DNA from: a virus
Lineage: Duplodnaviria > Caudoviricetes
Direction: 5' to 3' (one strand)
IMG/VR virus record: IMGVR_UViG_3300046170_000323
Length of the DNA stretch: 64,000 nt
Each line of letters begins with the position of its first letter. Positions within the stretch are counted from its first letter, which is position 1. Shown piece after piece: positions 9,086-28,535 of the stretch. The notes beneath the pieces were generated by a model that saw nothing but the letters and a program-made list of their open reading frames with translations, did no database searches and was not told the DNA's origin. The position numbers and the translations under genes were made by a program.

Positions 9086-10150
9086 GTGAGTCTATTAGAT
9101 AAAATGCTCAAATCAGGAGCAGTGAAGACTTCTTCAATTCTTTCTAAGTCAAAGTTTTTCGAGGCGAAGGATCCCATTCAAACGGAACTTCCCATCGTTA
9201 ACATTGCATTTAGTGGATCATTGAAGGGGGGATTAATCCCCGGCCTAACTGTAGTTGCAGGGCAGTCAAAGTCATTTAAGACTTTGCTGTCTCTGTACTG
9301 CATGAAGGCATATCTAGATAAGTACGAAGAAGGCGTGGCATTATTGTACGACTCTGAGTATGGTATTACACCAGAATATCTAGAAAGTTACAACATCGAC
9401 ACCAACCGTGTTATACATATTCCTGTAGAAGATGTTGAACAACTAAAGTTCGACATCACTAAGAGGTTGGACGAAGTAGACAAAGGTGATCGTGTATTCG
9501 TCATGATTGACTCTGTTGGTAATCTTGCATCTAAGAAAGAAGTCGAAGACGCTAAGAACGAGAAGGCAGTTGCCGACATGTCTCGTGCGAAAGCGTTGAA
9601 GTCTCTCTTCCGCATTATTACACCTAAGTTGACTGCAAAAGACATCCCTTGTCTTGCAATCAACCACGTCTATCAGGAAATCGGAATGTTTCCTAAGGCG
9701 ATTGTATCTGGTGGAACTGGTATCTATTACTCCGCAAACCAAATCTTTATCATCTCTAAATCGCAAGAGAAGGATGGTACAGATCTCGCAGGGTTTAAGT
9801 TTACTATCAACATCGAAAAGTCACGCTTCGTGAAAGAGAAGTCCAAACTTCCATTCACAGTTCTCTATGAGTCAGGTATTCAGAAGTGGTCATCATTATT
9901 TGACCTCGCACTGGACGCAGGGTTCATTGCCAAATCTACACAGGGATGGTATAATCTCGTAGATATGGATAGCGGTGAAGTTATCGAACCACGTCGACGT
10001 TTGAAAGATATCGAACAAGATGACGCATTCTTTGAGAAATTGGTTGCCAACGATGACTTTAACGTGTATATTGAGCGCAAGTTTAAATTAAACATGGCAC
10101 AGGCTGAAGATGATAGAAACAACGATACTGACGAACCTGATTCTGAATGA
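9086..10150 (+). CDS. uvsX: UvsX RecA-like recombinase
   Basis: AGQSKSFKT Walker A, YDSEYG, IDSVGNL, SGGTG motifs. Confidence 0.95.
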   Translation: MSLLDKMLKSGAVKTSSILSKSKFFEAKDPIQTELPIVNIAFSGSLKGGLIPGLTVVAGQSKSFKTLLSLYCMKAYLDKYEEGVALLYDSEYGITPEYLESYNIDTNRVIHIPVEDVEQLKFDITKRLDEVDKGDRVFVMIDSVGNLASKKEVEDAKNEKAVADMSRAKALKSLFRIITPKLTAKDIPCLAINHVYQEIGMFPKAIVSGGTGIYYSANQIFIISKSQEKDGTDLAGFKFTINIEKSRFVKEKSKLPFTVLYESGIQKWSSLFDLALDAGFIAKSTQGWYNLVDMDSGEVIEPRRRLKDIEQDDAFFEKLVANDDFNVYIERKFKLNMAQAEDDRNNDTDEPDSE

Positions 10151-11529
10151 GGAATACTACCGAAAGGTATATCCTTATCTGAAACCAGATTACTTTGAAG
10201 ACTCAAATCTGCGCAAGGTGTTTGACACCTTCGCAGACTACGTTGAGAAGTACAAAGAGCAACCTTCCTTGGAAGCTCTTAAACTCACACTAGACAAAAG
10301 AAAAGACTTCAACGAAGACAGTTACTCACAAGTGATGTCTGTGGTCAATACTTTTGCACGTGATGAGGAAACAGATAACAAGTTCTTGGTTGATGAAACT
10401 GAAAAGTTCTGCCAAGACCGTGATCTGTATAATTCTATACGGCAATCAATTCAGATTCTTGAGGGTGAAGGGGGTGGACTCGAAAAGGGTTCCATCCCCA
10501 AACTTCTTTCAGACTCTCTTGGGATTAGTTTCGACACCAGTGTTGGACACGACTTCCTAGAAGACTTTGAAGGTAGATATGAATTCTATCACCGTAAAGA
10601 AGAACGCATCCCCTTTGATATTGACATCATGAATAAGATTACCAAAGGTGGTCTGCCTCGTAAGTCTATGACTGTACTACTCGCCACGACTGGTGGTGGT
10701 AAGTCATTGATCAAATGTCACATGGCTGCGAACCATCTCATGTACGGTAAGAATGTTCTGTACATCACTATGGAGATGGCAGAAGAAGAGATTGGTAGAC
10801 GTATTGATGCAAACATCATGGACGTGACTATTGATGAGATATCAATCACTCCACGTGATGTGTTCGAGAAACGTATGAACAGGTACAAGTCTAAGACGCC
10901 AGGCAAGTTGGTTATTAAAGAATACCCAACTGGTTCTGCACACGTTGGACATATGCGACATCTGTTAAACGAACTTCGTATGAAAAAGAATTTTCAACCA
11001 GATATCATATTTGTTGATTACCTCAACATCTGTTCATCTGCACGTGTTCGTGGCGCAGCCGCAGCCAATTCATACACATTGGTGAAATCTATAGCAGAAG
11101 AGGTACGTGGTCTTGCGATGGAATTTAATTGTGCTGTGGTTACTTCGTCTCAATTCAATCGTGATGGTTATGGGAATAGTGACGTTGACCTTACTAATAC
11201 TAGCGAAAGTATGGGGATAACACACACAGCAGACGCAATCTTTGGTCTAGTTACGACAGAAGAACTAGGATGATCTTGGTCAGATTATGATCAAACAACT
11301 CAAAAATCGTTGGGGAGATCTTGGTTATTACAGAAAGTTCCTTGTAGGGGTTGACAGATCCAAGATGAAGATATATGATTTAGAAGAGAGTGCACAGGAC
11401 AATATCGGTCAGTCAAGTGACGATAGAGTAAATGGAAACAAGCCTGATGACACTCCTCTATTTGATAAAACTTCTATTGGTACAACTAAGAAGAAGGACA
11501 TTTTCAGTATGACTGAAGGCCTTCAATAA
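10110..11529 (+). CDS. 41: gp41 replicative DNA helicase, split by probable extra G at 11268
   Basis: LATTGGGKS Walker A, YITMEMAE, VDYLNI, SESMG; C-terminal IKQLKNRW in ORF 11287. Confidence 0.93.
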
Positions 11530-11530
11530 T

Positions 11531-11538
11531 GATAAATA
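11531..11538 (+). promoter_or_regulatory. T4 late-promoter-like octamer GATAAATA
   Basis: One mismatch to TATAAATA, 33 nt before ATG 11571. Confidence 0.45.
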
Positions 11539-11570: not shown

Positions 11571-12629
11571 ATGAAATCCTTTAAACAACACCTCACCGAA
11601 TCTATTAAGGCAGAGGACTTTGAGGCTGCTATTGTAATTGGTTGGCACGAAATCACAGGACAGGAACTAAATCCTAGTGATGCTGGTATATCTGATAAGG
11701 TATACCAGTCTCTCGTTGCACAACCAGAATATATCGAAGCAGGCAAAAAGATTGCCACGTCTATCCAGAAACATTTCAAGTTAGGTAATAACGTGAAAGC
11801 AGAACAGTACGGACGTGCCAAGTCCAAACTGACTGGTTTTTGGAAAGGATACGGTGCTTCAGATATCACACCAAAGACTGATATCCTAATCGGTGACAAA
11901 AGATTGTCTCTAAAGATTGGTATGGCACAGTTGATGTCTGGTGGTAAATCAGAGTCAACTGCAACCTTTTATGCGGCTCTAGAAAAATCACAGATCAATG
12001 AATCTGCACAACTGGGTAAGGTAACAAAGATCTTTGACGACTTCGTCACTGCATCACTTGCGCCAGGCAAACTAAGACCTATCATCAAGTCAGGCGAGAA
12101 TGAACTCGTCAACCGTGGTGAGAAGGCACACAAATTAGTTATGCAAGAACTTGGTACTCTGTTCGAAGAGAACGAGAAGTTCAAGATTGAATTTGCACGT
12201 GAAGCAATGTCTGGTTTCATGAAGTACGGTGAGAACGCAAATGCTGCTGCAGAATTCATGGTGGTATCAGATCACGCAGGTTCCTCTACAAAGATTACAT
12301 CAGTATATGACGATGCGTACTGTAAGAAGATCGCAGATCAGATGAAACTACAAGCACGTTTCAAAACGTCATCACGCAAACTCAAAGGTAAGAAGACAGG
12401 CGAGTATAACTTCTGGTCTGTCATTTCTCTTATCGTAGATGCTAAACTAAACGAAGACGTTGACACTCTTGACGAGAACATGTTCAAACGTATTGTTTCT
12501 AAAATCAAAGGTAAACTGGGTAACGCACTTAAGAAGGCGAAGTCTTTTGTTAAATCAAAGGCATCAAACGTTCTTAAGTTTTTCGGCGTTGAACCCGATA
12601 TCAAAGTAAACGACAAGGTAGAATTCTAA
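11571..12629 (+). CDS. putative head-internal protein with possible PD-(D/E)XK-like fold
   Basis: N-terminus MKSFKQHLTE; TPKTDILIGDKRLSLK resembles a D...xLK nuclease core. Confidence 0.45.
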   Translation: MKSFKQHLTESIKAEDFEAAIVIGWHEITGQELNPSDAGISDKVYQSLVAQPEYIEAGKKIATSIQKHFKLGNNVKAEQYGRAKSKLTGFWKGYGASDITPKTDILIGDKRLSLKIGMAQLMSGGKSESTATFYAALEKSQINESAQLGKVTKIFDDFVTASLAPGKLRPIIKSGENELVNRGEKAHKLVMQELGTLFEENEKFKIEFAREAMSGFMKYGENANAAAEFMVVSDHAGSSTKITSVYDDAYCKKIADQMKLQARFKTSSRKLKGKKTGEYNFWSVISLIVDAKLNEDVDTLDENMFKRIVSKIKGKLGNALKKAKSFVKSKASNVLKFFGVEPDIKVNDKVEF

Positions 12630-13873
12630 TGCAAAAGTTCAGTCAGTTTACTAATTTGTTATCAGAAGAAAAAAACCTTCACATGACACATGCAGAGGAT
12701 GCAGTGATAGATGGTGGAGTGACTGGTACACGCAACGTAATTAATTACCTTCGTGCAATTAGAGATATGTTAGGTGGTAACACCAAAGCGCCTGTAAACC
12801 TTTCAGTAAAGTGGGATGGTGCGCCTGCAATCTTTGCAGGGGTTGATCCATCAGATGGTAAATTCTTTATTGCAAAGAAAGGTGTATTTAACAAAAACCC
12901 AAAAGTCTATAAGACTGCCCAAGAAATTGATGATGATAGTTCTATTAAAGGTGACCTCAACTCCAAATTTAAAGTAGCACTTTCAGAGTTCTCAAAACTT
13001 GGAATTGAAGGAGTGATACAAGGTGATTTCCTCTATACTACGGAAGATCTTTCGACGGATGCTATTGATGGAGAATCGTATGTTACTTTCCATCCTAATA
13101 CGATTGTTTATGCGATACCAAAGAAAAGCGAACTCGCTAAAAAAATATCAAGATCCAAGATCGGTGTGGTCTGGCATACAGTCTACAGAGGAGAATCTCT
13201 TGAGACAATGTCTGCAAGTTTTGGAGAGAAGATTACACCTAATCTCAAAGAAGTAAAATCTGTATGGGCAGTTGATGCCGTATTCGAAGATAAGTCTGGT
13301 AGTGTAACCATGACTGCAAAAGAAACGGCGGCGGTGACTAAGAAACTGAGTGCCGCTGGAATGATCTTCAGAACAATCAAAAAAGATATCCTTAATGAGT
13401 TAGGAAACAACGAAGAGTTGAACCTACGTGTTAACACGTTCATTAATACTAAAGTTCGTGAAGGACAACGTATTGGTAATCCTAAAACATTCGTTAAGGG
13501 ACTTGTAAAATATATTCAAGACTACTATCAAAAAGAAGCCGACAAAAAGAAAACTGAAAAAGGTAAGAAGACGCAGACAGATAAGATGTCTAAAGCGTTG
13601 ACAATGTTCAGTGACAAGAATACCAAAGAGATCGAAAAGGTATTCGAACTCTACAATCTATTAGTCGACACCAAGTTGATGGTTCTTGACAAACTTAATA
13701 AAGTAGATAGTTTAAAAACATTCCTTAAAACAAATAAGGGATATGAAGTTACTAATCCAGAAGGATTTGTTGCAATGGATCACTTGGGTAAGAACTCTCT
13801 TAAACTCGTAGATCGCCTTGCATTTAGTAAGGCAAACTTTGATCCTCAGTATATCAAAGGATGGCAGAAATAA
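12629..13873 (+). CDS. ligase/nucleotidyltransferase-like protein (DUF6267-like)
   Basis: KWDG, QGDFLY, PEGFV and KLVDR resemble ligase motifs I, III, IV and V. Confidence 0.55.
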   Translation: MQKFSQFTNLLSEEKNLHMTHAEDAVIDGGVTGTRNVINYLRAIRDMLGGNTKAPVNLSVKWDGAPAIFAGVDPSDGKFFIAKKGVFNKNPKVYKTAQEIDDDSSIKGDLNSKFKVALSEFSKLGIEGVIQGDFLYTTEDLSTDAIDGESYVTFHPNTIVYAIPKKSELAKKISRSKIGVVWHTVYRGESLETMSASFGEKITPNLKEVKSVWAVDAVFEDKSGSVTMTAKETAAVTKKLSAAGMIFRTIKKDILNELGNNEELNLRVNTFINTKVREGQRIGNPKTFVKGLVKYIQDYYQKEADKKKTEKGKKTQTDKMSKALTMFSDKNTKEIEKVFELYNLLVDTKLMVLDKLNKVDSLKTFLKTNKGYEVTNPEGFVAMDHLGKNSLKLVDRLAFSKANFDPQYIKGWQK

Positions 13874-14244
13874 TGGCAAACGTACATTACCTAAAACGAT
13901 CACATAACGAAGCAGTAATCAAAGTATACGTAACAGACTCATCTGGTGATACGGTTGATGTGGCTTTGTCAGACCTTATTGCTGATGGGGAAACATTTGA
14001 CTGCAGGTACAGGCTTCAGTAACTATTAAAGAAATCTTTTGGGGTTGTAAACACAATAAACACATAGACATCTCACGATGGGATGGAGCAAATGCGCACG
14101 GTCATTACTATCTCGTAAACTCAGGTTCTCAACGAATATGTTGGCTTTGTAGATGATGTATACTCAGGAAGAGATATAAGAATCATAGGTGATGGTGAAT
14201 TCCATTGTATAATGAAATTAACTAAGGTTAGTGGATATTCGTAA
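13873..14244 (+). CDS. hypothetical protein (about 120 aa) broken by about three probable indels
   Basis: ATG 13873 MANVHYLKRSHNE; pieces ASVTIKEIFWGCK and EYVGFVDDVYSGR...SGYS* in adjacent frames fill the gap. Confidence 0.45.
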
Positions 14245-14267
14245 CAGATTAGAAACGGAGAACAGTT

Positions 14268-14618
14268 ATGTTGAGAAGAATACCAGCAGTATTGTTAGGT
14301 ATTTTCCTAACAGTACCATTTAATGCACAGGCTGAACAGTTTGTGATGCCCATTGGGTTGAGGTGTGACACTGATGTCAACAACATCATAGACATGGTTC
14401 AAACAAAATATGGTGAAATTCCTTTCGCCAGTTCCGAAACTTTGGTACAAGTAGTACCACAGGGTACATGGTTGCCAGGCGTTACCTTGCAGTTTATCAA
14501 TCCCACATCTGGTTCATTCAGTATGATTATGATGGACGAAGCAACAGGTGCAGGGTGTATGGTAATCGCAGGTCAAAAAATGACTTCCGTTAATGGTTAT
14601 AAACCAACTACTAAATAA
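14268..14618 (+). CDS. hypothetical secreted protein
   Basis: Signal-peptide-like N-terminus ending AQA; GGAG RBS. Confidence 0.6.
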   Translation: MLRRIPAVLLGIFLTVPFNAQAEQFVMPIGLRCDTDVNNIIDMVQTKYGEIPFASSETLVQVVPQGTWLPGVTLQFINPTSGSFSMIMMDEATGAGCMVIAGQKMTSVNGYKPTTK

Positions 14619-14641
14619 AAGAAAAACTTGGAGACTAGACT

Positions 14642-15205
14642 ATGGGAATGATACGTGATCGTGGACATGATGGTGGAAATACTTGGCGGTGGTTAGTCAT
14701 CGAAAAGATGGTACGTCAAAACGGATGGACTAAGGGCGCAGAACTTGGTGTGTGGCAGGGACAAACCTTCACGCATCTTGTACGTACTTGTAAAAACCTA
14801 AATTTGATTGGGGTAGATCTTTATGCACCTCAACCACAAAATAATGGGCCAGAGAAATGGACTGCAGGTGAAAACGGACACCCTTGGGATCACGAAACAT
14901 ATTACAATCGTATGAAACAGTTTTGCGCACAGTATCCAGATCGTGCATTTATTCATAAGGATTATACTACAGCGGTAGCAGACACATTAGAAGACGAGAG
15001 TCTCGACTTTGTTTTTATCGATGCGGATCATGGTTATGAAGGATGTTCACGTGATATTGACGCATGGGCTCCAAAGGTGCGTAAAGGTGGATACATCATG
15101 GGACATGATATTCACTTTGACACTGTTCTCAAAGCCGTGACAGAACGTTACGGTGATAACTATAACGTAGAAGACGACTTCATTTGGTGGGTAGAAAAAC
15201 AATGA
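14642..15205 (+). CDS. class I SAM-dependent methyltransferase (Methyltransf_24-like)
   Basis: GAELGVWQG, GVDLY, DFVFIDADHGY and GGYIMGHD motifs. Confidence 0.85.
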   Translation: MGMIRDRGHDGGNTWRWLVIEKMVRQNGWTKGAELGVWQGQTFTHLVRTCKNLNLIGVDLYAPQPQNNGPEKWTAGENGHPWDHETYYNRMKQFCAQYPDRAFIHKDYTTAVADTLEDESLDFVFIDADHGYEGCSRDIDAWAPKVRKGGYIMGHDIHFDTVLKAVTERYGDNYNVEDDFIWWVEKQ

Positions 15206-15852
15206 ATATCGAAAAGAAAATAACTCAGATCTGGATTGGGCCAAACCCTGCGCCGATGGCATGGATGGACACTTGGAAAGAAAAACATCCAGAATGGGAA
15301 TATGAAATATTTACAGATCAGATGTTGAAGGATCGCAAATGGATGAACCAACATCTCATCGAACACTATTATAATAACAAGAGATGGGCAGGCGTTTCAG
15401 ATCTTATCCGTTACGAACTACTACTAGAACGTGGGGGTTTCTTTCCAGAGGCAGACATGGAGTGTTATCATAACACTGATGAACTGTTTACTTCCCCACC
15501 ACATATTGCATATACTTGTTATGAAAACGAATTGTATCGTGCAAACTTTGTACAACCAGTTCTTGCTTGCAATCCTGGCAATATGTTTGTTCGTATGTTG
15601 GTAGAGACACTACACCAACTTCGTGCAGATCAACTGCATTACGAACCATTCAGATCTACAGGTAATGAGTTCTTGAGTAAACATATTCCAATGAACCTAG
15701 ACAAAGTAAAAGTCTGGCCTTCACATTACTTCATCCCACAGTTCTATGTACGTGAGTCGAAGAGATATGACGGTACTGATAAGGTCTATGCGGAACATCA
15801 TTGGGGTTCTACTGGAATGCCTTGGACAAAACAGTACTCAACTGCTACCTAA
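15202..15852 (+). CDS. glycosyltransferase, GT32/DXD sugar-binding family
   Basis: KITQIWIG, TWKEKHPEWEY, SDLIRYELLLERGG..EAD; start at ATG 15202. Confidence 0.8.
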   Translation: MNIEKKITQIWIGPNPAPMAWMDTWKEKHPEWEYEIFTDQMLKDRKWMNQHLIEHYYNNKRWAGVSDLIRYELLLERGGFFPEADMECYHNTDELFTSPPHIAYTCYENELYRANFVQPVLACNPGNMFVRMLVETLHQLRADQLHYEPFRSTGNEFLSKHIPMNLDKVKVWPSHYFIPQFYVRESKRYDGTDKVYAEHHWGSTGMPWTKQYSTAT

Positions 15853-15962
15853 TGCATGGTGACAGAGGAAATATGCTCACCGTAAAGGTAATGGTTATTC
15901 TATGTGTGGTTTTACACTTTGTAGTCATACCAATATGGATGTGGAGTTTAGGATTACATTGA
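15852..15962 (+). CDS. 36-aa hydrophobic small protein
   Basis: Coupled to both neighbours (TAATG, TGAATG); one TM-like segment; below ORF-track cutoff. Confidence 0.5.
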   Translation: MHGDRGNMLTVKVMVILCVVLHFVVIPIWMWSLGLH

Positions 15963-16724
15963 ATGTTTATATCACACAAATACAAATTTATTTTTCTTAG
16001 AGTTCCGAAGACTGCCTCAACTAGTCTTTCGGAATTCTTTGTTCGTAACATAGACGATCCAGATGCATTTTACACAGACGTAGATGATGCAAATCTTGAT
16101 GGGACTGTGCCTCATGATAAACTCAAAGAGATTAGAGGAGTACACGAACACTACAAACCCTTCTCACACCTACATTTAAATCTAAAAGAACTCGTTGATC
16201 ATGGTATAGTAACACCAGAACAAATCAACGAGTATTATTGTTTTGCGGTTCTCAGAGATCCTATTGAAAGACAAAAGAGTTTTTACTACTTCTTTAAGAA
16301 GTGGGAAGATGAGAGATCTGGTAAGAAACCCTATGATATAGACGATTACAAATTCATGGCACCTAATGGGTGGTTTGATGGTGACAAGGCAACAGGTGAA
16401 GATAACTCTAAACTACTTCAGTCCGATTTCCTCATGTATGATGGTAAACAACAAGGTGAGTATTGGTTATATGAAAATATAATGGATCACCTTATAGAGT
16501 TTATGAATAAACTTGATTTGGAAATAAAACACCCATTGAAAAAACACAAATCAAATTTTAGAGTAGATAAAATTGATGAGTCCAAGTCATTTAATTTTGA
16601 TCACCAAGCAATCACCTCAATGAGACATTATTATAAAAATGACTTCAACTTATATTCATTATTAAAGAGACAATATCATGCAGACACAACGAGCTTACAT
16701 ACTTACAATAGACAAACCAATTAG
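15963..16724 (+). CDS. sulfotransferase family 2 protein
   Basis: FIFLRVPKTASTS 5'-PSB loop and VLRDPIERQKS 3'-PB motif. Confidence 0.85.
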   Translation: MFISHKYKFIFLRVPKTASTSLSEFFVRNIDDPDAFYTDVDDANLDGTVPHDKLKEIRGVHEHYKPFSHLHLNLKELVDHGIVTPEQINEYYCFAVLRDPIERQKSFYYFFKKWEDERSGKKPYDIDDYKFMAPNGWFDGDKATGEDNSKLLQSDFLMYDGKQQGEYWLYENIMDHLIEFMNKLDLEIKHPLKKHKSNFRVDKIDESKSFNFDHQAITSMRHYYKNDFNLYSLLKRQYHADTTSLHTYNRQTN

Positions 16725-17404
16725 TCGTGAATACGCACAACATGCATCTGCTTCTTGTGATGAGATAGGTCTCAACTGGGAGTACTTCGAAGGTTGGTGT
16801 GATATCCCTGGCGTTCTTGCATGGGCAAGATCGGGGATTAATTTGCGTATAAACGAGGGGAGACCAATTAAACTTCCCCCTGCAGATCTGGATTACCCAC
16901 CAAATCCAAACTTACCTATGGGTGAGAAAGCAGAGTGTTGTACGGTTGGTCATGCTGCGATATGGAAAAAGATTGCAGAGGGTGAAGAGGATGTAGGTAT
17001 TGTGTTAGAACATGATGCAATTATGTTACATTCTGTGGACATTGAAATACCAGAGAATAATATGGTTGTTTTAGGATACAAACTAGACAAACCTAATAGG
17101 TATGATCATTTGACTGCAGGGCCCTGCAGTGAGACTTGTACCAATCAGAGGACATGAAGGTGCACATGCATATGCGATGACTAAGAAAACAGCGCAGATA
17201 TTGATTGATGAGATCGAAACAGGTGGTCGATTAGGGTGTGTAGATAATGCATATTTCATCTTAAATCAAAGACGCACAAAGGTTCCTCTATGTATCGCAG
17301 ACCCAACACCCGCTTTAGGTTGGTTAAGGGCATCTACTATTTGGCAGGAATCTGCACATGTTAACTACGAATTTCTTGATTCATTCAAACAGAATTATAA
17401 ATAA
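16678..17404 (+). CDS. glycosyltransferase family 25-like, split by probable indel at 17119-17124
   Basis: CCTVGHAAIW, VLEHDA and downstream GAHAYAMT motifs. Confidence 0.7.
17396..17403 (+). promoter_or_regulatory. T4 late promoter TATAAATA
   Basis: Exact consensus 33 nt upstream of ATG 17436. Confidence 0.8.
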
Positions 17405-17435
17405 ACAGTAAAACACAAATTACAAGAGAATAATC

Positions 17436-20400
17436 ATGTACAACCTCAAAGAAACTGACAAAAAAGAAAAGAAGTCCAAGAAGAAGGATGTGATGAAATT
17501 CAAAGAGTTTGATCCTTCTCAGTACATCGAAACAGAACCGACACTCAAAGAAGCAAAGAGTGATACGGTTGTGTTTTCTTTTGGTCGTATGAATCCAGTG
17601 ACTATCGGTCACGAGAAACTTGTCAACAAGGTTAAGTCTGTTGCTAAATCCATGTCAGCCGATTCACGTGTCTATCTATCGCACACGCAGAATAATCAAA
17701 AAGATCCCCTCAGTTATAAAGACAAATACCGATTTGCGAGGAAAGCATTCGGGCCAATCATTATACAATCAAAAGCGAGACAAGTATTCCAAATCGCAGC
17801 CGAACTCGAAAAGGCGGGATACAAGAACATCGTCATGGTTGTTGGATCTGATCGTGTAGAAGAGTTCAAAAGAATTCTAGACAAGTACAACGGTAAGGAC
17901 TACGACTTCGCATCTATCAAAGTTGTTTCTGCTGGCGCACGTGATCCAGACGCAGATGGTGTTGAAGGAATGTCAGGTACAAAACTAAGAGGTATTGCCC
18001 AAAAGGGACAGTTTGACGACTATACAGATGAGAAGGGTAAGAAACAATTCGGTTTCAAAAGTGCTGCTGCATCTAAGTTGTCAGACAAAGACAAGATGGC
18101 AATGATGAAACTTGTTCAGAAGAACCTCGCAGAGGCGGAACTTCAAGAAGCGTTGACCAGACAACAACGTATGCAACGTGCACGTACATTCCGTAGAATC
18201 AAACATAAGATTAAAAAGGGACGTGAACGGGCGTCAAGAAAACGTGCAGGTATCGACAAGTTGCAGAAACGTGCCGCAAAGGGTGCAAGAAATCTCTTGA
18301 AAAAGAAAATGACTAAGGGACAAGACTACAAACAAATGTCTTATGGTCAAAGACAACAGGTCGATAATCGTCTGAAGAAAGTATCTCCTGCCCGTCTAAA
18401 AGCATTATCTAAACGTCTCTTACCTTCAGTGAAGAAGAAAGAGATGGAACGTATTAAGAACCGTAATAACAAATCTGAGGGTGTTGCACAGGACAGACAA
18501 GTCAAAGACATGCCGGGCACACAGCCAAAAAAGTACTATAGCGGGCTTGATAAAAAGGATAAGGAATCACGTGCAAGACAGTTTGCACGACAGGCGAAAA
18601 TGTCTGATGATGATCCACGTGCTTACAAACCCGCTCCTGGCGATAAGGAAGCGAAGACCAAACCGTCAAAACATACTAAGAAGTTTCAACAGATGTATGG
18701 TGAAGCAGATGCAGTTGCGGCTGCAAGAGAACGCATCAAACGTGAGAAACAGTCTGATAAAGATAAACACGATGCAATGATGGATCGTGCAAGAACTCAG
18801 GATACCAGATCTAAGAATCAAAAGACTGAGGCAATCTCCCCTGCACAACAGGCTGCGATTGCTATTGCAAAGAAAGCAAAAGGTCAGAAACCTAAGAATG
18901 AAGATGACGATCCATGTTGGGATACTCACAAGCAAGTTGGTATGAAGAAAAAGGGCGGCAAGATGGTTCCAGATTGTGTCCCTAAAAACGAATCAATTGC
19001 AGAAGAAGTTTCTCAGAAACAGATCAATGACCTAGAGAAATTTGCAGATCGTATTCTTGCGAAGTTCAAGATTGACGTGGAGTTTACTAAACACTTCGTT
19101 GATAGAATGAACGACAAGAGAAACACACCAGAAATTAAAGTTGCAGAACTTCAAAAGTTATTTAAAAAGATACAGAAGAATAAGGGCAAAGATGTTAAAG
19201 ACAATGAGGGTATTGAAGCAGTTCTTAAAGATCTGTCATCTGACTTAAACCTTCCAGTTGTAATTAAAACAAAAGGTGACGAGATCGAACTCGTCAATAA
19301 GACCATTATGAGAAAAAAAGATTTTAAAACACCTTCTAAGGTAATCAAGTACGAACAGTTTTCAAACATGGACGAAGCATCACGGGCGGACATGAGAGTA
19401 CGTAAAAGACCACACATGATGTTGAAGGCAGGGAATGCTGGAGTCAAGTTCGATGGTCGTTTCAAAATGTACAAGAAGAAACAGGTACTGAAAGACGAAG
19501 AGAAACCGTTGGAAGAATCATTTGAATCTATGGAGAACATGATCTTCGATCTAATGGAATCAACTGAAGCCGTGATTGCGGAAGATTCAGGCGAAGCACT
19601 TAAGAAGAAAGCAGAAAAATCTGGAATGCCTCTTGGTATTCTAAAGAAGGTTTTTGATCGTGGTGTTGCCGCATGGAGAACAGGACATAGGCCTGGCACT
19701 ACTGCAACTCAGTGGGGTCTTGCACGTGTCAACTCATTTGTAACTAAGTCTAAAGGTACTTGGGGTAAAGCAGACTCTGATCTTGCCGCAAAGGTTAGAA
19801 AAGAATCTGTTGATGAGGAAAAAGAATTAGAAAAAATCTTAACTACGGATGGTCGTATGAAATCGTTTAAAGAGAAACTCAGAAAACTGGGTTATAAAAA
19901 AATCGACGAAGGAAAGTCTTCTTCTGGATACGAACTGTACCACAATGATTTCTCCTCTGCAATGAAACATGCATACAAACATGCGAAAGACAAACTGAAA
20001 GTGGATATCGATCCTAATGAGATCGATGACAAAGTGGCAACTGGGCCTCGTAAACCTTCTAAGGGTAAAACGAATTCATATCGTTTGACAGATAAGTCTG
20101 GTAAAAAGGCAGTACAGATCCAAGTGTACAACATGGACGGTAAAAAATACGAACTGAACATGTACAAGGAAGACTTGGACGAAGCACCTCGACGTAAACG
20201 CCCACCTAAAATGACTGGTGACTCTATTGCAATTCAACGTGCAAAAGACGCAGAACTTAACAAAGCTCTTGGTCGTACAAAGACTGGACGTAAGAAACCA
20301 GTACGCAAAATGACATCTACCCAACGTTCACTTGCGTCATTACGTGGGGAAGAAGTAGAAAACATTGATGATCAGTTTGACGCTATCATCAAAGAGGCAG

Positions 20401-21491
20401 AATCAAACAAGAAATCTTATGGTGACCTTGTAGTAGAACTGACTGCCGCCGAGAAAAAACTTGTCAATCAAATGTATGACAAGAAAGGTAACCTCACACC
20501 ACTTGGTAAAAAGGTTATGAATCACGGTAAGAAAAAAGGTGACAAGGGTTACGTAGAATCAGTGGAAACACTAGAGGAAGGTGTAAACGATCCTGGCATC
20601 TTTAAGGCAGTGTTCCTCGCAGGTGGGCCAGGCAGTGGTAAATCATTTATGGTTGGTAAGACTGCATTGACTTCAATGGGATTGAAACTGATCAACTCAG
20701 ATCCTGCCTTCGAAGCGCAGTTGAAAAAAGTTGATTTGAAACCAACACCAGAAGACATCTTCACTGCTAAAGGACAGGATGCACGTGCAAAGGCGAAAGC
20801 ACTTACTGACAAAAAACAGGCACTTGCACTCGCAGGTAGACTTGGTCTGGTAATTGACGGTACTGGTAAGGACTATGAGAAAATTGCAAACCAAGCGATG
20901 TCACTCAAGAAGTTGGGTTATGAAGTCGGAATGATCTTTGTAAACACAAACTTGGAGACTGCAATCTCACGTGATGAAAAACGTTCTAGAACACTTGGTG
21001 CGAAAGAAGTAACCAATATGTGGAATGCAGTACAGAACAACATTGGTAAGTTCTCATCACTGTTTGGTGGGAACATGCAGATCGTTGATAACTCAGAAGG
21101 TGCAGACTTTGAGAAGGGTGCAACCAAAGCATATAAACAAATGAAGAAATGGGTTGCAAAAGATCCCAAGTCTCCAATGGCGAAAAAATGGATTGCCTCT
21201 GTGAAAGCACAACGTGGTATCACAGAAGACGATTTAGGTAAAATGATTAACAGTATGGTAGAGGGCAAAGATCAGGAAGATCTTTCAAAAACAGCTTCAC
21301 TATTTGAAAAGGATATTGTAATGGTTCGTGAAGGTTTGGACGTGAAGGAGAGTAAAGTACTTGAGTTGGGGAAACCAGAGACTACGAAGAAATATAAAAC
21401 TGAAACGCCTGGCGAGAAGCCGACGACAGAACCTCAGAGGTTTTCGCAGAGAATTAGAGAAAACATTCTCCGAAACCAAAGAAGAAAATAG
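17436..21491 (+). CDS. 1351-aa modular putative head-internal polyprotein (HIGH-type nucleotidyltransferase, putative BECR RNase, P-loop kinase and small modules)
   Basis: FGRMNPVTIGHEKL; FTKHFVDRMNDKR; LAGGPGSGKS with VIDGTG; hydrophobic-x-E motifs between modules; late promoter. Confidence 0.7.
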   Translation: MYNLKETDKKEKKSKKKDVMKFKEFDPSQYIETEPTLKEAKSDTVVFSFGRMNPVTIGHEKLVNKVKSVAKSMSADSRVYLSHTQNNQKDPLSYKDKYRFARKAFGPIIIQSKARQVFQIAAELEKAGYKNIVMVVGSDRVEEFKRILDKYNGKDYDFASIKVVSAGARDPDADGVEGMSGTKLRGIAQKGQFDDYTDEKGKKQFGFKSAAASKLSDKDKMAMMKLVQKNLAEAELQEALTRQQRMQRARTFRRIKHKIKKGRERASRKRAGIDKLQKRAAKGARNLLKKKMTKGQDYKQMSYGQRQQVDNRLKKVSPARLKALSKRLLPSVKKKEMERIKNRNNKSEGVAQDRQVKDMPGTQPKKYYSGLDKKDKESRARQFARQAKMSDDDPRAYKPAPGDKEAKTKPSKHTKKFQQMYGEADAVAAARERIKREKQSDKDKHDAMMDRARTQDTRSKNQKTEAISPAQQAAIAIAKKAKGQKPKNEDDDPCWDTHKQVGMKKKGGKMVPDCVPKNESIAEEVSQKQINDLEKFADRILAKFKIDVEFTKHFVDRMNDKRNTPEIKVAELQKLFKKIQKNKGKDVKDNEGIEAVLKDLSSDLNLPVVIKTKGDEIELVNKTIMRKKDFKTPSKVIKYEQFSNMDEASRADMRVRKRPHMMLKAGNAGVKFDGRFKMYKKKQVLKDEEKPLEESFESMENMIFDLMESTEAVIAEDSGEALKKKAEKSGMPLGILKKVFDRGVAAWRTGHRPGTTATQWGLARVNSFVTKSKGTWGKADSDLAAKVRKESVDEEKELEKILTTDGRMKSFKEKLRKLGYKKIDEGKSSSGYELYHNDFSSAMKHAYKHAKDKLKVDIDPNEIDDKVATGPRKPSKGKTNSYRLTDKSGKKAVQIQVYNMDGKKYELNMYKEDLDEAPRRKRPPKMTGDSIAIQRAKDAELNKALGRTKTGRKKPVRKMTSTQRSLASLRGEEVENIDDQFDAIIKEAESNKKSYGDLVVELTAAEKKLVNQMYDKKGNLTPLGKKVMNHGKKKGDKGYVESVETLEEGVNDPGIFKAVFLAGGPGSGKSFMVGKTALTSMGLKLINSDPAFEAQLKKVDLKPTPEDIFTAKGQDARAKAKALTDKKQALALAGRLGLVIDGTGKDYEKIANQAMSLKKLGYEVGMIFVNTNLETAISRDEKRSRTLGAKEVTNMWNAVQNNIGKFSSLFGGNMQIVDNSEGADFEKGATKAYKQMKKWVAKDPKSPMAKKWIASVKAQRGITEDDLGKMINSMVEGKDQEDLSKTASLFEKDIVMVREGLDVKESKVLELGKPETTKKYKTETPGEKPTTEPQRFSQRIRENILRNQRRK

Positions 21492-21502
21492 GGAGTAACT
21501 AA

Positions 21503-21658
21503 ATGATTAACTGGATTACAAAACGTTTAACTGAACGTACCACATGGGATGGAGCAGTATTGGTTGCAACAGGTGTTGCAATGATTCTAGTTCCTGTAGA
21601 TCTAATCGCATATGCCGCAATCTTCTACGGTGCATGGACAATGTGGAAGTCAGAGTAA
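21503..21658 (+). CDS. 51-aa membrane protein
   Basis: GGGAG RBS, two hydrophobic segments, abuts next ATG; absent from ORF track. Confidence 0.6.
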   Translation: MINWITKRLTERTTWDGAVLVATGVAMILVPVDLIAYAAIFYGAWTMWKSE

Positions 21659-22093
21659 ATGTATGAATACAGAGTTAAAATCCTTCGTGTAGTAGACGGT
21701 GACACAGTAGATGTGGACATCGATCTAGGTTTTGGTGTATGGTTGAAGAAGGAACGTGTACGTATTATGGGTATTGATACTCCAGAGTCACGTACGAGAG
21801 ATAAGGTCGAGAAGAAGTTCGGTATGGCTGCAAAGAAATGGGTAAAAGATCATATGCCTGTTGGTAGTCATCAGATTCTGAAGACTGAGATCGATAAGTC
21901 TGGTGAAGACAAAAAAGGTAAGTTTGGTCGCATCTTGGGAGACTTCCTCTTAGATGATGGTGAGCAAAGACTCACTGAAAAGATGACCGCCGCAGGGCAT
22001 TGTGTCCCTTACTTTGGTGGATCTAAAGAAGAAGTTCAGGCGTTACACATGAAGAACAGAGAACGTCTAATGCTGGAAGGTGTTGTAAAGTGA
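21659..22093 (+). CDS. thermonuclease (SNase)-like nuclease
   Basis: VVDGDTVD, RVRIMGIDTPE and GKFGRILG motifs. Confidence 0.85.
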   Translation: MYEYRVKILRVVDGDTVDVDIDLGFGVWLKKERVRIMGIDTPESRTRDKVEKKFGMAAKKWVKDHMPVGSHQILKTEIDKSGEDKKGKFGRILGDFLLDDGEQRLTEKMTAAGHCVPYFGGSKEEVQALHMKNRERLMLEGVVK

Positions 22094-22482
22094 AACGTTT
22101 TAAACAATATACTGTAGAAAATTTTGGTTTGTACGAGGGGGTAACAGTTCCCCTCGAATCTCCTATGATAGAAATAGATCCTATCGTATGTGAAGAGAAA
22201 GAACCAGAACTCAACTCTCCAAAAAGAAATAGTGGGGATGGCAAAAAGTATGTTGTTTATGTAAAGGATCCGAAGACAAGTAATGTCAGAAAGATAACAT
22301 TTGGGGATGAAAAGGGTGGATTGACATCTAAGATTGGTGACAGAGATGCAGCACGTGCATTTGCAAGTCGTCATAGTTGTGATACTAAGACTGATAAGAT
22401 GACGCCTGGATATTGGGCGTGTCGTCTACCGAAATATGCAAAACAGTTAGGATTAAGTGGTGGCGGAGATTACTTTTGGTAG
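22090..22482 (+). CDS. putative head-internal protein (DUF6321-like)
   Basis: N-terminus MKRFKQYTVE; KKYVVYVKDPKT...FASRHSC...GYWAC module. Confidence 0.5.
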   Translation: MKRFKQYTVENFGLYEGVTVPLESPMIEIDPIVCEEKEPELNSPKRNSGDGKKYVVYVKDPKTSNVRKITFGDEKGGLTSKIGDRDAARAFASRHSCDTKTDKMTPGYWACRLPKYAKQLGLSGGGDYFW

Positions 22483-22726
22483 GCCATATCTGGATGATGG
22501 GGGGTCAAGACGGTTTGACCATTTACGGGATGACTATGTTTGGCACAGAGATCATTACGACAGAACAGTACGTGTCATTGATGGGAACGGATGGCAGTTC
22601 CAGTTCGACGGATGTTTGCCCTTCCTCATCAGAAAGGGAACAACCTTCAGAATAGAACGTGGTGTGTACCACAGACTTATAAAGGGCGTTGACGAACTTC
22701 ACATCAATATTATAGAACATAAATAG
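22457..22726 (+). CDS. small cupin-like hypothetical protein
   Basis: WHRD...WQFQFD...YHRLIKG pattern; start uncertain. Confidence 0.5.
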   Translation: MVAEITFGRPYLDDGGSRRFDHLRDDYVWHRDHYDRTVRVIDGNGWQFQFDGCLPFLIRKGTTFRIERGVYHRLIKGVDELHINIIEHK

Positions 22727-22768: not shown

Positions 22769-24901
22769 ATGGACTTTAAAGATAAAATAGACAGTCTTTT
22801 CGGTACTCTGGTTCACCAGAAACTAGAAGAGAAAAAGAACACAGCAGAAGACGCATCAAACGACAAGTCTGATGACGGCGAAGGAATGGACAAAGTAGAT
22901 CCAAAGGCTGCGAAAAAGAAATTCAAAGATCGTAAAGATAAAGATCTGGACAACGATGGTGACATAGATTCATCCGATAAGTTCTTGCACAAGAGACGCA
23001 AGGCAATCGGTAAAGCTATGTCCAAAGATCAGAAAGACGAATCTGTAAAAAAGTCTGATGCGGTAGACCTCAGTGAAGGTGACATGAAGTCTGCCGCTAA
23101 AGAACTGGAATCATATGCCAAGAAGTCTGGTGGAATCGATAAGAAAGATTTCATGAAGGCAGTGGCGATGATGAAAAAGGGTGATGCAAAGGGTCTTGCG
23201 AAGTTTACTAACGATCAAGATACAGAACCACGTGATAAGATCATCGATATAGTTGCAAAACAAATCGGTGTACCCCAAGCAGAAAAGTTGTTTAGTGTCA
23301 GTATTCGTGAAGCAAAAGAGATGACTTCAGCGCAGAAGAAAGCGTTTGATAAACTGTACAAGAAACTAGACGGTGGCCCAGAACATCGTAAGATCAGACA
23401 GAAGATTCAGAATCCTGTCAAAGCAGATGATGCATTTCATGCAATGGTTAAGAAGATGGTTATGGGTGAGGATTACTCTCCACAGTCTATCGTAACTGAA
23501 GCGGAAGTCGAAGAAGGTAAACGTGGGTTTATCATGGCTGCAAAAGCTGCGAAGGCAAAAGGTGAAAAGACCTTTATGTTTGCAGGTAAAGAATATAACT
23601 GTGAAGACATCGATCTTGACGAGGCATCTAAAACTGTTGATGCAATGAAACAAATCGTTGACAAAAAACAGGCGATGAAAATCGACGGTGTTATGGTTGA
23701 CATGTTCACTGCTTCTGCAGTTACGCAGATTTACGACAAAGTAAATGATGCGAACAAGGCGAAGATGGACAAGATGAAAGCAACTCAACTTGCAAACATT
23801 GCAATGAAGATGTTGAAGAAAGAAGAGTTGGAAGAGGCCGCAAAGATGTGCGAGTCCTGTGGTAAAGTCCACGAAGGTTCTTGCATGGAAGAGATGAAGA
23901 ACACTCATGCGCTTATCAACACTGCAGACGGTAACAAAGTTGTTGCAATGGCATCATCTGAAGATGGTGTTAAACAATCTAAAGCATCTGCACAACGTCC
24001 ACCTATGTCAATCAAAGACAAGAACACTCTGAAGATTGTTAAACTTAAGAAACCTGTAAGTCAAAAGGCATCCGATAAAATAATGGGTCGTCCTTTGAAT
24101 GAGGAAACACTTGATGAGAAAATGTCATTCTCACCTAAAGAGGTTAAGATGGCAATCGGTGTTGCATCAGATAAAAGATATGCTGGTGGTAACATGACAG
24201 GTGCAGTCAAGGCAATCGATAAAATCAAAAAGGGTTTGTCAGACCATCCACAAGTCGCTGCAGTTCTAAAGAGACAGAACGAAGAGAAGGTGGAGTGCCC
24301 TCAGTGTGAAGGTAAAGGTTGTGATCATTGTGATAACAAAGGTTACCACACAGAATCTAAAAAGATGGCACTTGCAAAGAAACTTGCAAAGGTATCTGCG
24401 GCTTCTAAAAAGGGTAAATCAAAAGTAACTCTTAAGAAGGCGCCTTGGGACAAGAAAGAAACAGTCAATACTGAACCAGAATTAGAAGAAGCAAAAAACT
24501 ATGAGTACAAGGGCGGTAAAGTCCATATCTCTAAGAAAGACTTCCGCAAGGTTCACAAAGACTTTAAGAATGCAACAAAGGGTAAAGAACGTATGATGAT
24601 TCTTGATCCTAAAACGCAAGCATCTATATCTGTACCAGTTGTGTTCAAAGAAAGTTCTTTTAAAACCAAATTTAAGAATACCCTAAGTAAGAGACTTGCA
24701 GAAACAACTAAAACAGAAGAAAAATCTGATGAAGTTGCAAACAGATATAATGAACTTAAAACAATGCCGCCAGTGGAATTGATGAAACTTTATCAAAAGC
24801 ATGAAAGCGATGCCGACATAGATAAGGTTAAGAAAATGAGCAAAGACGAGATGATCTCGAAAATTGTTGAAAAAGAATTTCAAAACCAAGGAGAAGAATA
24901 A
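22769..24901 (+). CDS. 710-aa modular Lys/Glu-rich putative head-internal polyprotein
   Basis: Many hydrophobic-x-E motifs separating short modules; two CxxC pairs; CATAAATA upstream at about 22718. Confidence 0.6.
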   Translation: MDFKDKIDSLFGTLVHQKLEEKKNTAEDASNDKSDDGEGMDKVDPKAAKKKFKDRKDKDLDNDGDIDSSDKFLHKRRKAIGKAMSKDQKDESVKKSDAVDLSEGDMKSAAKELESYAKKSGGIDKKDFMKAVAMMKKGDAKGLAKFTNDQDTEPRDKIIDIVAKQIGVPQAEKLFSVSIREAKEMTSAQKKAFDKLYKKLDGGPEHRKIRQKIQNPVKADDAFHAMVKKMVMGEDYSPQSIVTEAEVEEGKRGFIMAAKAAKAKGEKTFMFAGKEYNCEDIDLDEASKTVDAMKQIVDKKQAMKIDGVMVDMFTASAVTQIYDKVNDANKAKMDKMKATQLANIAMKMLKKEELEEAAKMCESCGKVHEGSCMEEMKNTHALINTADGNKVVAMASSEDGVKQSKASAQRPPMSIKDKNTLKIVKLKKPVSQKASDKIMGRPLNEETLDEKMSFSPKEVKMAIGVASDKRYAGGNMTGAVKAIDKIKKGLSDHPQVAAVLKRQNEEKVECPQCEGKGCDHCDNKGYHTESKKMALAKKLAKVSAASKKGKSKVTLKKAPWDKKETVNTEPELEEAKNYEYKGGKVHISKKDFRKVHKDFKNATKGKERMMILDPKTQASISVPVVFKESSFKTKFKNTLSKRLAETTKTEEKSDEVANRYNELKTMPPVELMKLYQKHESDADIDKVKKMSKDEMISKIVEKEFQNQGEE

Positions 24902-27924: not shown

Positions 27925-27970
27925 TAAATATCCTTAGTAATTAGGTATACTATTATTTGCGTAACAAATG

Positions 27971-27990
27971 AAACCCCGATTAGGGGTTTT
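27971..27990 (+). terminator. intrinsic terminator-like hairpin
   Basis: AAACCCC-GATTA-GGGGTTT followed by T. Confidence 0.55.
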
Positions 27991-28009
27991 ATCAATTCCA
28001 TCAAGGGGA

Positions 28010-28471
28010 ATGAACTTGTCAGAAGAATTAAACCAATTAAAAATAGACATTGCTTTAATTAAAAAAGACATCCGTCAAATCGAGCGTTTCTTCAACAAGG
28101 TTGATGAGACCGTTGACGCTATGTCTGGAATTGCAAAGGATCTGGCAGTTCAAGAACAGAAGAATGTTAACGCTAACCAAAAAATAAAGTTTCTTGATGC
28201 CAAGATTGATGAGAACACCAAGTCTCAACTTGAAGCACGTCTTGTATTGGCAGACCAATTGGATGATACACGTATAGAATTTCGTGATGCACTCGCCAAG
28301 GTCTCCTCTGTGGACGAGGACGGTATCAACGAGGTATTCGAAAAGATCCAGTCGTTAGAAGACCGTGTAGTCGATCTAGAACGTGCCAGATGGTACGGTA
28401 TGGGAGTCGCAGGCACAATTATCTTTATCCTAGGCATAATTTCTTTGGACTTTCTGCCTTTTAATGGTTGA
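28010..28471 (+). CDS. coiled-coil protein with C-terminal TM helix
   Basis: AAGGGG RBS before ATG 28010; heptad pattern; hydrophobic C-terminus. Confidence 0.55.
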   Translation: MNLSEELNQLKIDIALIKKDIRQIERFFNKVDETVDAMSGIAKDLAVQEQKNVNANQKIKFLDAKIDENTKSQLEARLVLADQLDDTRIEFRDALAKVSSVDEDGINEVFEKIQSLEDRVVDLERARWYGMGVAGTIIFILGIISLDFLPFNG

Positions 28472-28496
28472 CAAAGCTTTAATCTAGTGTTATAAT
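28468..28496 (+). promoter_or_regulatory. sigma70-type promoter upstream of primase
   Basis: TTGACA-17 nt-TATAAT. Confidence 0.8.
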
Positions 28497-28535
28497 CTCT
28501 CTAACAGTTAAACACACTTGGATACTTTTTATAAT

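Follow-up and report, generated by a model that had tools for sequence, protein, structure and literature searches.

A T4-type capsid-targeting leader probably marks head-packaged enzymes in an uncultured lineage of T4-superfamily phages

Results

Short N-terminal leaders at a replication locus

Several genes in a 64,000-nucleotide (nt) stretch of IMG/VR virus record IMGVR_UViG_3300046170_000323, hereafter the window, encode unrelated proteins that begin with a short leader resembling the capsid-targeting sequence (CTS) of bacteriophage T4. As judged from gene content and from protein matches to Stenotrophomonas phage DLP6 and to T4-like cyanophages, the window is assigned to a T4-superfamily myophage of an uncultured lineage. 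The leaders, the proteins behind them and the promoter-like motif ahead of the first one are as follows (aa, amino acids; matrix scores are explained below):

11531 to 11538, + strand: T4-type late-promoter-like motif GATAAATA, 33 nt upstream of the ATG at 11571
11571 to 11600, + strand: leader 1, MKSFKQHLTE (F4, H7, L8, E10); matrix score 23.4, the best of 2632
11571 to 12629, + strand: candidate cargo protein 1, 352 aa, possibly a PD-(D/E)XK-type nuclease; phrog_22045 (unknown function)
12629 to 12667, + strand: leader 2, the variant MQKFSQFTNLLSE (F4, F7; L-x-E at residues 11-13); matrix score 6.7
12629 to 13873, + strand: candidate cargo protein 2, DUF6267, a predicted RNA-ligase-like covalent nucleotidyltransferase; Pfam PF19782, E 1e-105
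22090 to 22119, + strand: leader 3, MKRFKQYTVE, GTG start (F4, Y7, T8, E10); matrix score 18.6, rank 2 of 2632
22090 to 22482, + strand: candidate cargo protein 3, 130 aa; phrog_7595 (unknown function)

The CTS is known from the T4 internal proteins IPI, IPII and IPIII, where it is processed by the prohead protease gp21 (Mullaney and Black, reviewed in PMC9026906 and PMC3012670). In IPIII the first 10 residues suffice for head incorporation, targeting runs mainly via residues 4 and 7 and processing via residues 8 and 10, and gp21 cuts after the Glu of L/I-x-E (PMC9026906). A sequence-only reading of the window had named five N-termini of this kind, at 11571, 12629, 17493, 19857 and 22090, and had taken them to outline a block of injected cargo genes.

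We collected 80 IMG/VR loci that encode homologues of the 12629 protein, a member of Pfam family DUF6267. With few exceptions, these proteins begin M-x-x-[FYL]-x-x-[FY]-[LI]-x-E, with 10-mers such as MKSYNQYIAE and MKTFKKFIAE, directly before a conserved KN-x-HM-x-H-x-ED block. From 57 distinct N-terminal 10-mers of this family, the window's own copy being left out, we built a 9-column log-odds matrix that contains no T4 sequence (training-set score range, 15.8-26.9), and with it we scored all 2632 ATG, GTG and TTG codons in open reading frames (ORFs) of at least 50 aa in the six frames of the window.

The five peptides do occur where the sequence-only reading had placed them, but they differ in evidential weight. 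The leaders at 11571 and 22090 ranked first and second, both inside the training range. Ranked third, the 12629 leader is a real variant: its residues 1-7 (M-Q-K-F-S-Q-F) fit the pattern, but its L-x-E is shifted to residues 11-13, where most of the 80 homologues have the canonical 10-mer instead. The internal MKSFKE at 19857 scored 3.4 (rank 4), the top of the noise (next score, 2.5), and is at chance level; homologues of that polyprotein module do not keep the motif as a leader, which rules it out as a relic. Lastly, MKFKEF at 17493 scored -23 as an N-terminus, in a gene that starts at 17436. Of the five, then, 11571 and 22090 are strong, 12629 is a true variant, 17493 had been mis-assigned as a start and 19857 matches by chance.

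Further observations bear on the individual leaders. M1 and E10 of the 11571 leader are invariant in 13 homologues, and the 33-nt spacing of GATAAATA is that of TATAAATA before 17436 and before 26905, which favours a start at 11571 over one at 11529. The GTG at 22090 has the Shine-Dalgarno-like GGAAGGTG upstream of it, and homologues of this protein have an ATG start and the same leader. The putative gp21-type sites, read from the sequence, would be L8 with E10 in the 11571 leader, T8-V9-E10 in the 22090 leader and L11-S12-E13 in the 12629 leader.

One leader on many unrelated proteins

The sequence-only reading had also suggested that a motif built from these N-termini be scanned over the genome and its relatives. 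Over the 80 loci (1.03 Mb; 28,122 start-type codons), and at a threshold score of at least 10, a scan with the DUF6267-trained matrix returned 95 further gene starts outside the DUF6267 genes, against about 1.5 with column-permuted matrices and residue-shuffled peptides. All 95 lie on the same strand as the DUF6267 gene, and 92 of them are at most 40 codons from the stop that opens the ORF, compared with 40% of all candidates. When the leader is cut away, BLAST sorts the carriers into about 28 clusters, and the further starts represent some 25 unrelated families. The same leader thus stands on otherwise non-homologous proteins. Pfam families among them include HD_4, HAD phosphatase, PAP2, RimK-type ATP-grasp with a Zn-protease domain, P-loop kinases and cytidylyltransferase-like proteins; RNA-ligase-like proteins occur too, and most carriers are unknown.

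The overall pattern, M-x-x-[FY]-x-x-[FYH]-[LI]-x-E (consensus M-[KIL]-x-F-K-x-[FYH]-[IL]-x-E), is tightly kept in the 87 distinct leaders from genes other than DUF6267. Of these, 81 have F at position 4 and 84 have either F or Y there. An F, Y or H stands at position 7 of 83 leaders, an I, L or V at position 8 of 77 and an E at position 10 of 83, and position 11 is mostly A, G, K or S. These conserved positions, 4, 7, 8 and 10, are the experimentally mapped determinants of the T4 CTS, and the T4 CTS itself, MKTYQEFIAE, scores 11.7 on the matrix. Conversely, the back-translated pattern M-K-x-[FY]-x-x-[FY]-h-x-E has three matches in the 168.9-kb T4 genome (ipII, ipIII and gene 61.1), and the reversed control has none. 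T4 gp61.1 (54 aa) begins MKTFKEFIKE; its gene (NC_000866.4, 18966-19130; L097:1366-1530, - strand) falls in the interval between 61 and 41, where the window and cyanophages also have their leader genes.

In structure as well as in sequence the leader appears to be a detachable module. In both AlphaFold2 models (11571 and 12629 proteins) it lies outside the fold at a predicted local distance difference test score (pLDDT) below 50, and in the 11571 family it stays at the extreme N-terminus even where a domain of 85 residues is inserted behind it. In cytidylyltransferase genes of five distant relatives (L069, L072, L076, L078 and L080) the leader stands two residues in, as M-E-I-K-S-F-S-D-Y-L-V-E or M-S-I-K-S-F-S-D-F-L-T-E. 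Since the Met1-anchored matrix misses such leaders, the number of leader genes must be higher than we counted.

Gene shuffling at short conserved regulatory sequences is known from T4-type phages, and the leaders are A/T-rich and sit at gene starts. The similarity might therefore lie at the nucleic-acid level, in a translation-initiation region, a regulatory element or a recombination cassette, with the peptide incidental. We found instead that synonymous sites are randomised: identical residues in different families or loci use the same codon in 54.5% of cases, against 51.7% expected from codon usage (0.545 vs 0.517). Between leaders, the first and second codon positions have identities of 0.59 and 0.60, compared with 0.43 for the third, and the 30 nt upstream of the leaders show 0.32 identity. 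Some leaders, moreover, lie two residues behind the start, and others persist as relics within fusion proteins (see below). As the codon analysis places the constraint on the peptide and not on the DNA, we reject the DNA cassette or regulatory element, to which we assign a negligible probability. The leader is real, significant, under protein-level constraint and common to unrelated families.

The proteins behind the leaders

The sequence-only reading had called the 11571 product nuclease-like, a description with which its predicted fold agrees weakly. Pfam had no match for the protein. Its homologues share an invariant T-P-K-x-D ... S-L-K-x-G block, in which D104 and S113-L-K115 are invariant, and the best fold match of its model (pLDDT 67.5) in the Protein Data Bank (PDB) is the restriction endonuclease HinP1I, a weak match (E 0.02, probability 0.91-0.93, template-modelling score 0.30-0.40). 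The protein is possibly a nuclease of the PD-(D/E)XK type.

For the 12629 protein, DUF6267, the predicted structure supports the earlier description as ligase-like. Foldseek searches of the PDB with the 11571 and 12629 models returned weak matches, and a second pass with VIA-align pointed to an RNA-ligase fold for DUF6267 (whole-model pLDDT 82.7, and below 50 for residues 1-17). All of the top 50 VIA-align matches are nucleotidyltransferase domains of RNA or DNA ligases, led by Naegleria RNA ligase (Z 8.9; 182 residues, root-mean-square deviation 3.5) and including T. brucei REL1 (Z 7.9), T4 Rnl2 (7.6), Trl1 (7.5) and T4 Rnl1 (7.2). Invariant in 20 DUF6267 homologues are K61-W-D63-G64 (motif I, KxDG), G132-D133, E378-G379 and K392, a set that fits motif I with its predicted catalytic lysine and motifs III, IV and V of covalent nucleotidyltransferases. 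The relationship to ligases is remote, as a sequence profile of DUF6267 found nothing among PDB sequences. The model and the invariant residues support the assignment of DUF6267 as an RNA-ligase-like covalent nucleotidyltransferase. The 22090 product had been described as DUF6321-like, which did not hold up: no Pfam family matches it at E<=5, and phrog_7595 is its sole match.

A polyprotein with leader relics at its module junctions

Between the 12629 and 22090 genes lies a gene for a large multi-module protein, with these features (a slash marks the putative cut):

17396 to 17403, + strand: T4-type late promoter consensus TATAAATA, 33 nt upstream of the ATG at 17436
17436 to 17552, + strand: N-terminal 39 residues, with a K-rich stretch, an internal CTS-like K-F-K-E-F, Y-I-E-T-E and T-L-K-E/A; layout kept in relatives
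17436 to 21491, + strand: candidate cargo polyprotein, 1351 aa, with cytidylyltransferase-like, unknown, DUF5824 and P-loop kinase modules (Pfam, PHROG)
17580 to 17885, + strand: cytidylyltransferase-like domain; PF01467 E 0.009, phrog_3041 E 3e-91
19569 to 19583, + strand: junction AVIAE/D before the DUF5824 module; aligns with the leader end QIIAE/A of the stand-alone protein L057_18593
20565 to 20579, + strand: junction ETLEE/G before the kinase module; aligns with FKRFLEE/G-type leader ends of 7 stand-alone kinase homologues
20604 to 20996, + strand: P-loop kinase module of Zeta_toxin / AAA_33 type; Pfam E 1.3e-6 and 1.8e-5

The sequence-only reading had this protein start with MKFKEF. We found instead a 39-residue N-terminal region that ends in TLKE/A, with the layout shared by relatives: Met, a K-rich stretch, K-x-F-K-E-F-D-x-x-K-Y-I-x-x-E-P-x-L-x-E-A and then the enzyme domain. 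The start at 17436 is favoured because TATAAATA stands 33 nt upstream of it, the same spacing as at 11571. A gene start at 17493 is rejected as improbable on account of this spacing, of the K-rich extension that relatives have ahead of the motif, and of the contig L002, 99% identical, in which codon 17493 is Leu.

Single modules of the polyprotein are homologues of many small stand-alone leader-bearing proteins in other contigs, and three junctions keep the cleavage half of the leader exactly at the leader end of the stand-alone homologue. Besides the two junctions listed, TLKE/A before the transferase domain aligns with SLTE/A, the end of a canonical leader in the stand-alone homologue of L074. 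The chain contains 15 L/I-x-E sites, against 9.9 +/- 2.7 in shuffled sequences, whereas in UvsX, the helicase, NrdA and a 1270-aa late protein such sites are at or below expectation. These junctions and site counts fit a polyprotein that is loaded as one chain and then cut in the head. The kinase module gave weak profile matches to PDB proteins (PSTK, 0.004; zeta toxin, 0.015; T4 polynucleotide kinase, 0.15).

Promoters, prohead protease, scaffold and virion proteins

The core of the T4-type late promoter, ATAAATA, occurs at most 70 nt upstream of 45 of 96 leader genes (47%) and of 155 of 1097 other ORFs (14%), a baseline that includes ORFs that are not genes. In the window, NATAAATA precedes 11571 and 17436 by 33 nt and 22769 by 44 nt. 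On the basis of this promoter motif, rather than of transcripts, the leader genes would be expressed late, together with head assembly.

Two complete relatives, G003 (194.6 kb with terminal repeats) and G004 (195.3 kb), encode the gp21 protease (Peptidase_S77, PF03420) at E 1e-37 and 1e-34, respectively, and in both the protease adjoins the gp22 scaffold (phrog_237) and gp23. The gene order in G003 is portal, a 516-aa leader-bearing protein, a small ORF, an inserted gene, protease, scaffold and major capsid protein:

96556 to 98106 of G003 (L088), - strand: 516-aa leader-bearing protein, MKTFSKLLSE, in the head operon, in the slot of T4 prohead-core genes 67 and 68

The inserted gene before the protease encodes 274 aa, and its N-terminus looks by eye like a homing endonuclease. 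Among 6500 candidate starts in G003, 10 bear a leader, of which 8 fall in two groups (23-24 kb and 37-40 kb), 1 is the head-operon gene and 1 lies elsewhere. A complex prediction that paired a leader-bearing N-terminus (50 aa) with the G003 gp22 scaffold gave a score of 0.00, which is evidence neither for nor against docking.

Virion data are available from cyanophages. In purified S-SM1 virions, mass spectrometry detected the T4-GC190 'cytidylyltransferase' with 25 peptide counts, a level comparable to the 25 for gp6, 22 for gp22 and 18 for gp20 (Sullivan et al. 2010, PMC3037559, Table S8); the tabulated S-SM1 virion proteins also include the products of the flanking GC1453, GC1454 and GC1455, plus GC425 and GC426 (PMC3037559). 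The gene encoding T4-GC190, SSM1_190, begins MKKFSAFLNE (score 17.2) and its Syn9 counterpart, gp184, begins MKKFSAFLSE (score 16.9); under the strict F4 pattern these are the only matches in the 174-kb and 177-kb genomes. The cytidylyltransferase-like domain of the window polyprotein is 43% identical to SSM1_190 (E 1e-37). As SSM1_190 has the leader and is listed among the S-SM1 virion proteins, at least one leader-bearing member of the cargo set has been found in virions. No targeting leader is mentioned in Table S8 of that paper or in the parts of its main text that term searches reach (Sullivan et al. 2010, PMC3037559).

Two other accounts of the leader have to be set against these data. 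A short helical N-terminal peptide with two aromatics three apart is loosely like clamp- or partner-binding motifs, and most carriers look like cytoplasmic nucleic-acid or nucleotide enzymes. The leader could thus be a docking peptide for another partner, for instance a chaperone or the sliding clamp, or a tag for degradation or sorting, on proteins that act unpackaged in the infected cytoplasm; the lack of a cytidylyltransferase detection in Syn9 and S-PM2 virions would agree with this. Such a role sits poorly with the near-invariant Glu 10 and the I/L at position 8, which match a protease site and not a clamp motif, and with a pattern that picks out the experimentally proven T4 CTS proteins. 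Moreover, the sole leader gene of S-SM1 encodes a protein listed as virion-detected, one leader gene lies in the G003 head operon, and late-promoter motifs are enriched before leader genes. We regard the docking peptide or tag as improbable.

Similarly improbable, in our estimate, is that the leader sends its proteins to another part of the virion, such as the baseplate, the tail or the surface of the capsid, or only into a scaffold destined for degradation and expulsion, with nothing functional delivered. The S-SM1 mass spectrometry, as tabulated, does not localise proteins, the window protein at 24901, beside the block, matches 'head protein' and baseplate/tail-fibre PHROGs, and the K/E-rich modular proteins are reminiscent of the scaffold or core proteins that are cut to pieces and lost in T4. 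Carriers, though, keep conserved catalytic motifs (the ligase-like KxDG, the kinase P-loop, HD), which makes discarded material hard to sustain, and a T4 leader of the same type specifically marks injected head-internal proteins. Either alternative accounts less well than a capsid-targeting and cleavage leader for the match to T4, the logic of the protease site and the leader gene in the head operon.

Several points weigh against the capsid-targeting reading. Two of the three window leaders depart from the processing positions, the 22090 leader with T rather than L/I at position 8 and the 12629 leader at positions 8-10, while the polyprotein has no canonical N-terminal leader and an L/I-x-E excess that is modest, at about 2 standard deviations. 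Protease and scaffold are absent from the window and from the 63%-complete source record, which is without a head module; the protease is seen in relatives whose DUF6267 proteins are 57-71% identical to that of the window. The virion proteomics tabulated for S-PM2 and Syn9 did not detect T4-GC190, and the detection in S-SM1 gives neither position in the virion nor removal of the leader (PMC3037559). For this phage and its close relatives, the case for packaging is comparative.

Genes around the leader genes

Nearly all long ORFs of the window lie on the + strand, and a ribonucleotide reductase is encoded as well. The locus shares its order with cyanophages: uvsX, gp41, (mazG), hypothetical genes, a DUF6267-like gene, a 'cytitidyltransferase', modular K/E-rich proteins and gp61. 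The replication genes and the genes that stand in or beside the leader-bearing group are:

9086 to 10150, + strand: UvsX
10110 to 11273, + strand: gp41-type helicase
within 13.9-17.4 kb: methyltransferase-like gene, phrog_2675
within 13.9-17.4 kb: sulfotransferase-like and glycosyltransferase-like genes, judged by reading the sequence
21659 to 22093, + strand: staphylococcal-nuclease (SNase) homologue without leader; PF00565 E 1.6e-9
22769 to 24901, + strand: 710-aa modular protein without canonical leader, a candidate head-internal protein; phrog_22379, phrog_4359
about 27968 to 29240, + strand: primase pieces

The sequence-only reading had drawn a single cargo block from 11571 to 22482. Several leader genes do lie in this interval, but leader-less genes interrupt it as a 3.5-kb insert at 13.9-17.4 kb, and the SNase gene at 21659 has no leader either, its N-terminus MYEYRVKILR showing no match to the matrix. 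The SNase gene overlaps the 22090 leader gene by 4 nt. Directly upstream of it, a 51-aa ORF (21503-21658) has a hydrophobic stretch that reads like a transmembrane segment. At the end of the insert, the overlapping ORFs 16678-17157 and 17129-17404 look, from reading the sequence, like halves of one glycosyltransferase-family-25-like gene, with a possible frameshift.

The 710-aa protein has CATAAATA at 22718-22725, 44 nt upstream of its start, and contains 10 L/I-x-E sites against 5.3 +/- 2.1 in shuffles. Its two PHROGs, phrog_22379 and phrog_4359, also match the leader-bearing protein between portal and prohead protease in G003, and it shares a D-N-D-G-D module with Syn9 gp185. In BLAST comparisons of the 22769 and 24901 proteins with the virion-detected S-SM1 neighbours (GC1454, GC425) no link was found at E<=1e-3. 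The synteny argument for these two proteins is weak, as only Syn9 gp185 and gp188 matched.

Both replication genes that bound the locus appear to be split in the window. The gp41-type helicase is apparently divided into a 387-aa ORF (10110-11273) and an 80-aa ORF in another frame (11287-11529) that matches the C-terminal end of a DnaB-like helicase PHROG (phrog_19, positions 552-604 of 621); a frameshift, an assembly error or a real split are possible. The primase likewise appears in two ORFs (27968-28471 and 28518-29240).

A megablast of the region against 50,697 phage records gave no match. By protein, the nearest isolate is DLP6, with 50% identity to the 12629 product, which also matches hundreds of T4-like cyanophages. 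An IMG/VR contig of 117.8 kb, with a CheckV completeness of 63%, encodes a DUF6267 protein 99% identical to that of the window.

Discussion

We propose, with a probability of about 0.75, that the leader is a T4-type capsid-targeting and cleavage signal that marks enzymes packaged in the phage head. In the sequence-only reading, such a signal marked a packaged set at five sites. Two of the five fail, while the idea itself is well supported by comparison: unrelated carriers, the experimentally mapped positions, late-promoter-like motifs, protease and scaffold in relatives and the S-SM1 orthologue. Packaging of the leader-bearing proteins is likely on this comparative evidence; the steps that follow it are put forward as a model.

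The 11571, 12629 and 22090 products would be unrelated proteins with a short detachable leader that is the counterpart of the T4 CTS. Transcribed late, the leader genes would yield proteins that dock, mainly through residues 4 and 7 of the leader, on the scaffolding core of the assembling prohead. A protease of the gp21 family would then cut after the Glu of [LI]-x-E, freeing the mature enzyme in the head, and the enzyme would exit with the DNA at the next infection. The 17436 gene would encode a chain of cargo modules behind a longer N-terminal propeptide. As its module junctions keep [LI]-x-E at stand-alone leader ends, we propose that this chain is loaded whole and cut into several enzymes.

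The CTS, and its use by T4-like phages to pack varied proteins, are already established for T-even coliphages. The leaders described here share with it a 10-residue N-terminal position on non-homologous proteins, aromatics at 4 and 7 and, in most of them, I/L at 8 and Glu at 10, together with late-promoter-like motifs and, in complete relatives, a gp21-family protease and gp22 scaffold. Cargoes known from T-even phages are small proteins without enzymatic activity that inhibit restriction enzymes of the GmrSD type (PMC12373910). By contrast, the candidate cargoes here are large enzyme-like proteins (RNA-ligase-like, kinase and nuclease-like) and a 1351-aa multi-module polyprotein; their genes lie in the uvsX-41...61 region, unlike the T4 ip loci; and the lineage is distant from the T-even phages, with DLP6 as its nearest isolate and a locus syntenic with marine cyanophages. 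The polyprotein recalls the core cyanophage protein T4-GC190, which occupies the same place between the gp41 helicase and gp61 primase genes, beside a DUF6267-like gene. T4-GC190 is, however, a single-enzyme protein of about 385 aa, whereas the window domain heads a 1351-aa fusion with a longer, non-canonical N-terminus.

Two further systems invite comparison. The polyvalent proteins of phages and conjugative elements (Iyer, Burroughs, Anand, de Souza, Aravind 2017, PMC5512222) likewise combine several unrelated effector or enzyme domains in one polypeptide of a portal-terminase phage, and the prediction is that they enter the particle, are processed and reach the host along with the DNA. They differ in that Pfam finds no in-cis processing peptidase (zincin-like MPTase or similar) in the window polyprotein, for which we propose processing in trans by the prohead protease at L/I-x-E junctions, and entry via a CTS-type propeptide rather than a MuF/portal fusion. 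For many head-internal proteins of the giant phages phiKZ, 201phi2-1 and SPN3US, a gp21-related protease cuts behind a Glu, and the proteins are ejected into the host (PMC9026906); there the site is S/A-x-E, propeptides are long and no short leader is shared, whereas here L/I-x-E lies in a T4-type 10-mer. In a literature search of incomplete coverage, which makes an earlier description possible, we found no description of the leader outside T-even phages, of an enzyme or polyprotein cargo that carries it, or of DUF6267.

The sequence-only reading had assigned cutting, healing and sealing activities to a packaged set delivered before transcription starts. Such a role, or one in RNA repair, is plausible on the predicted enzyme types, but we consider it doubtful. 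In a broader version, about which we are equally hesitant, the T4 code would be conserved across the T4 superfamily (coliphage T4, marine cyanophages and this lineage) and would load an enzyme kit that is injected to repair or pre-empt defence damage to tRNA, other RNA or nucleotide pools before phage expression. The kit would hold an RNA-ligase-like enzyme, a PNK/PSTK-like kinase and a nuclease, with a HAD phosphatase and an HD hydrolase in relatives, and would be made partly as polyproteins that the head protease cuts.

The T4 CTS is a classic phage route for loading passenger proteins and has also been put to use for delivery. Should this 10-residue code operate in distant T4-like phages that abound in the environment, injected proteins would become predictable from sequence alone. 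It would also explain a long-standing oddity, the presence of an apparent metabolic enzyme, the core 'cytidylyltransferase', in purified cyanophage virions. Phages of this kind would bring complete enzymes and enzyme polyproteins, possibly an RNA-repair-like set, into the cell as infection begins, a delivery that would bear on how they pre-empt abortive-infection and RNA-targeting defences.

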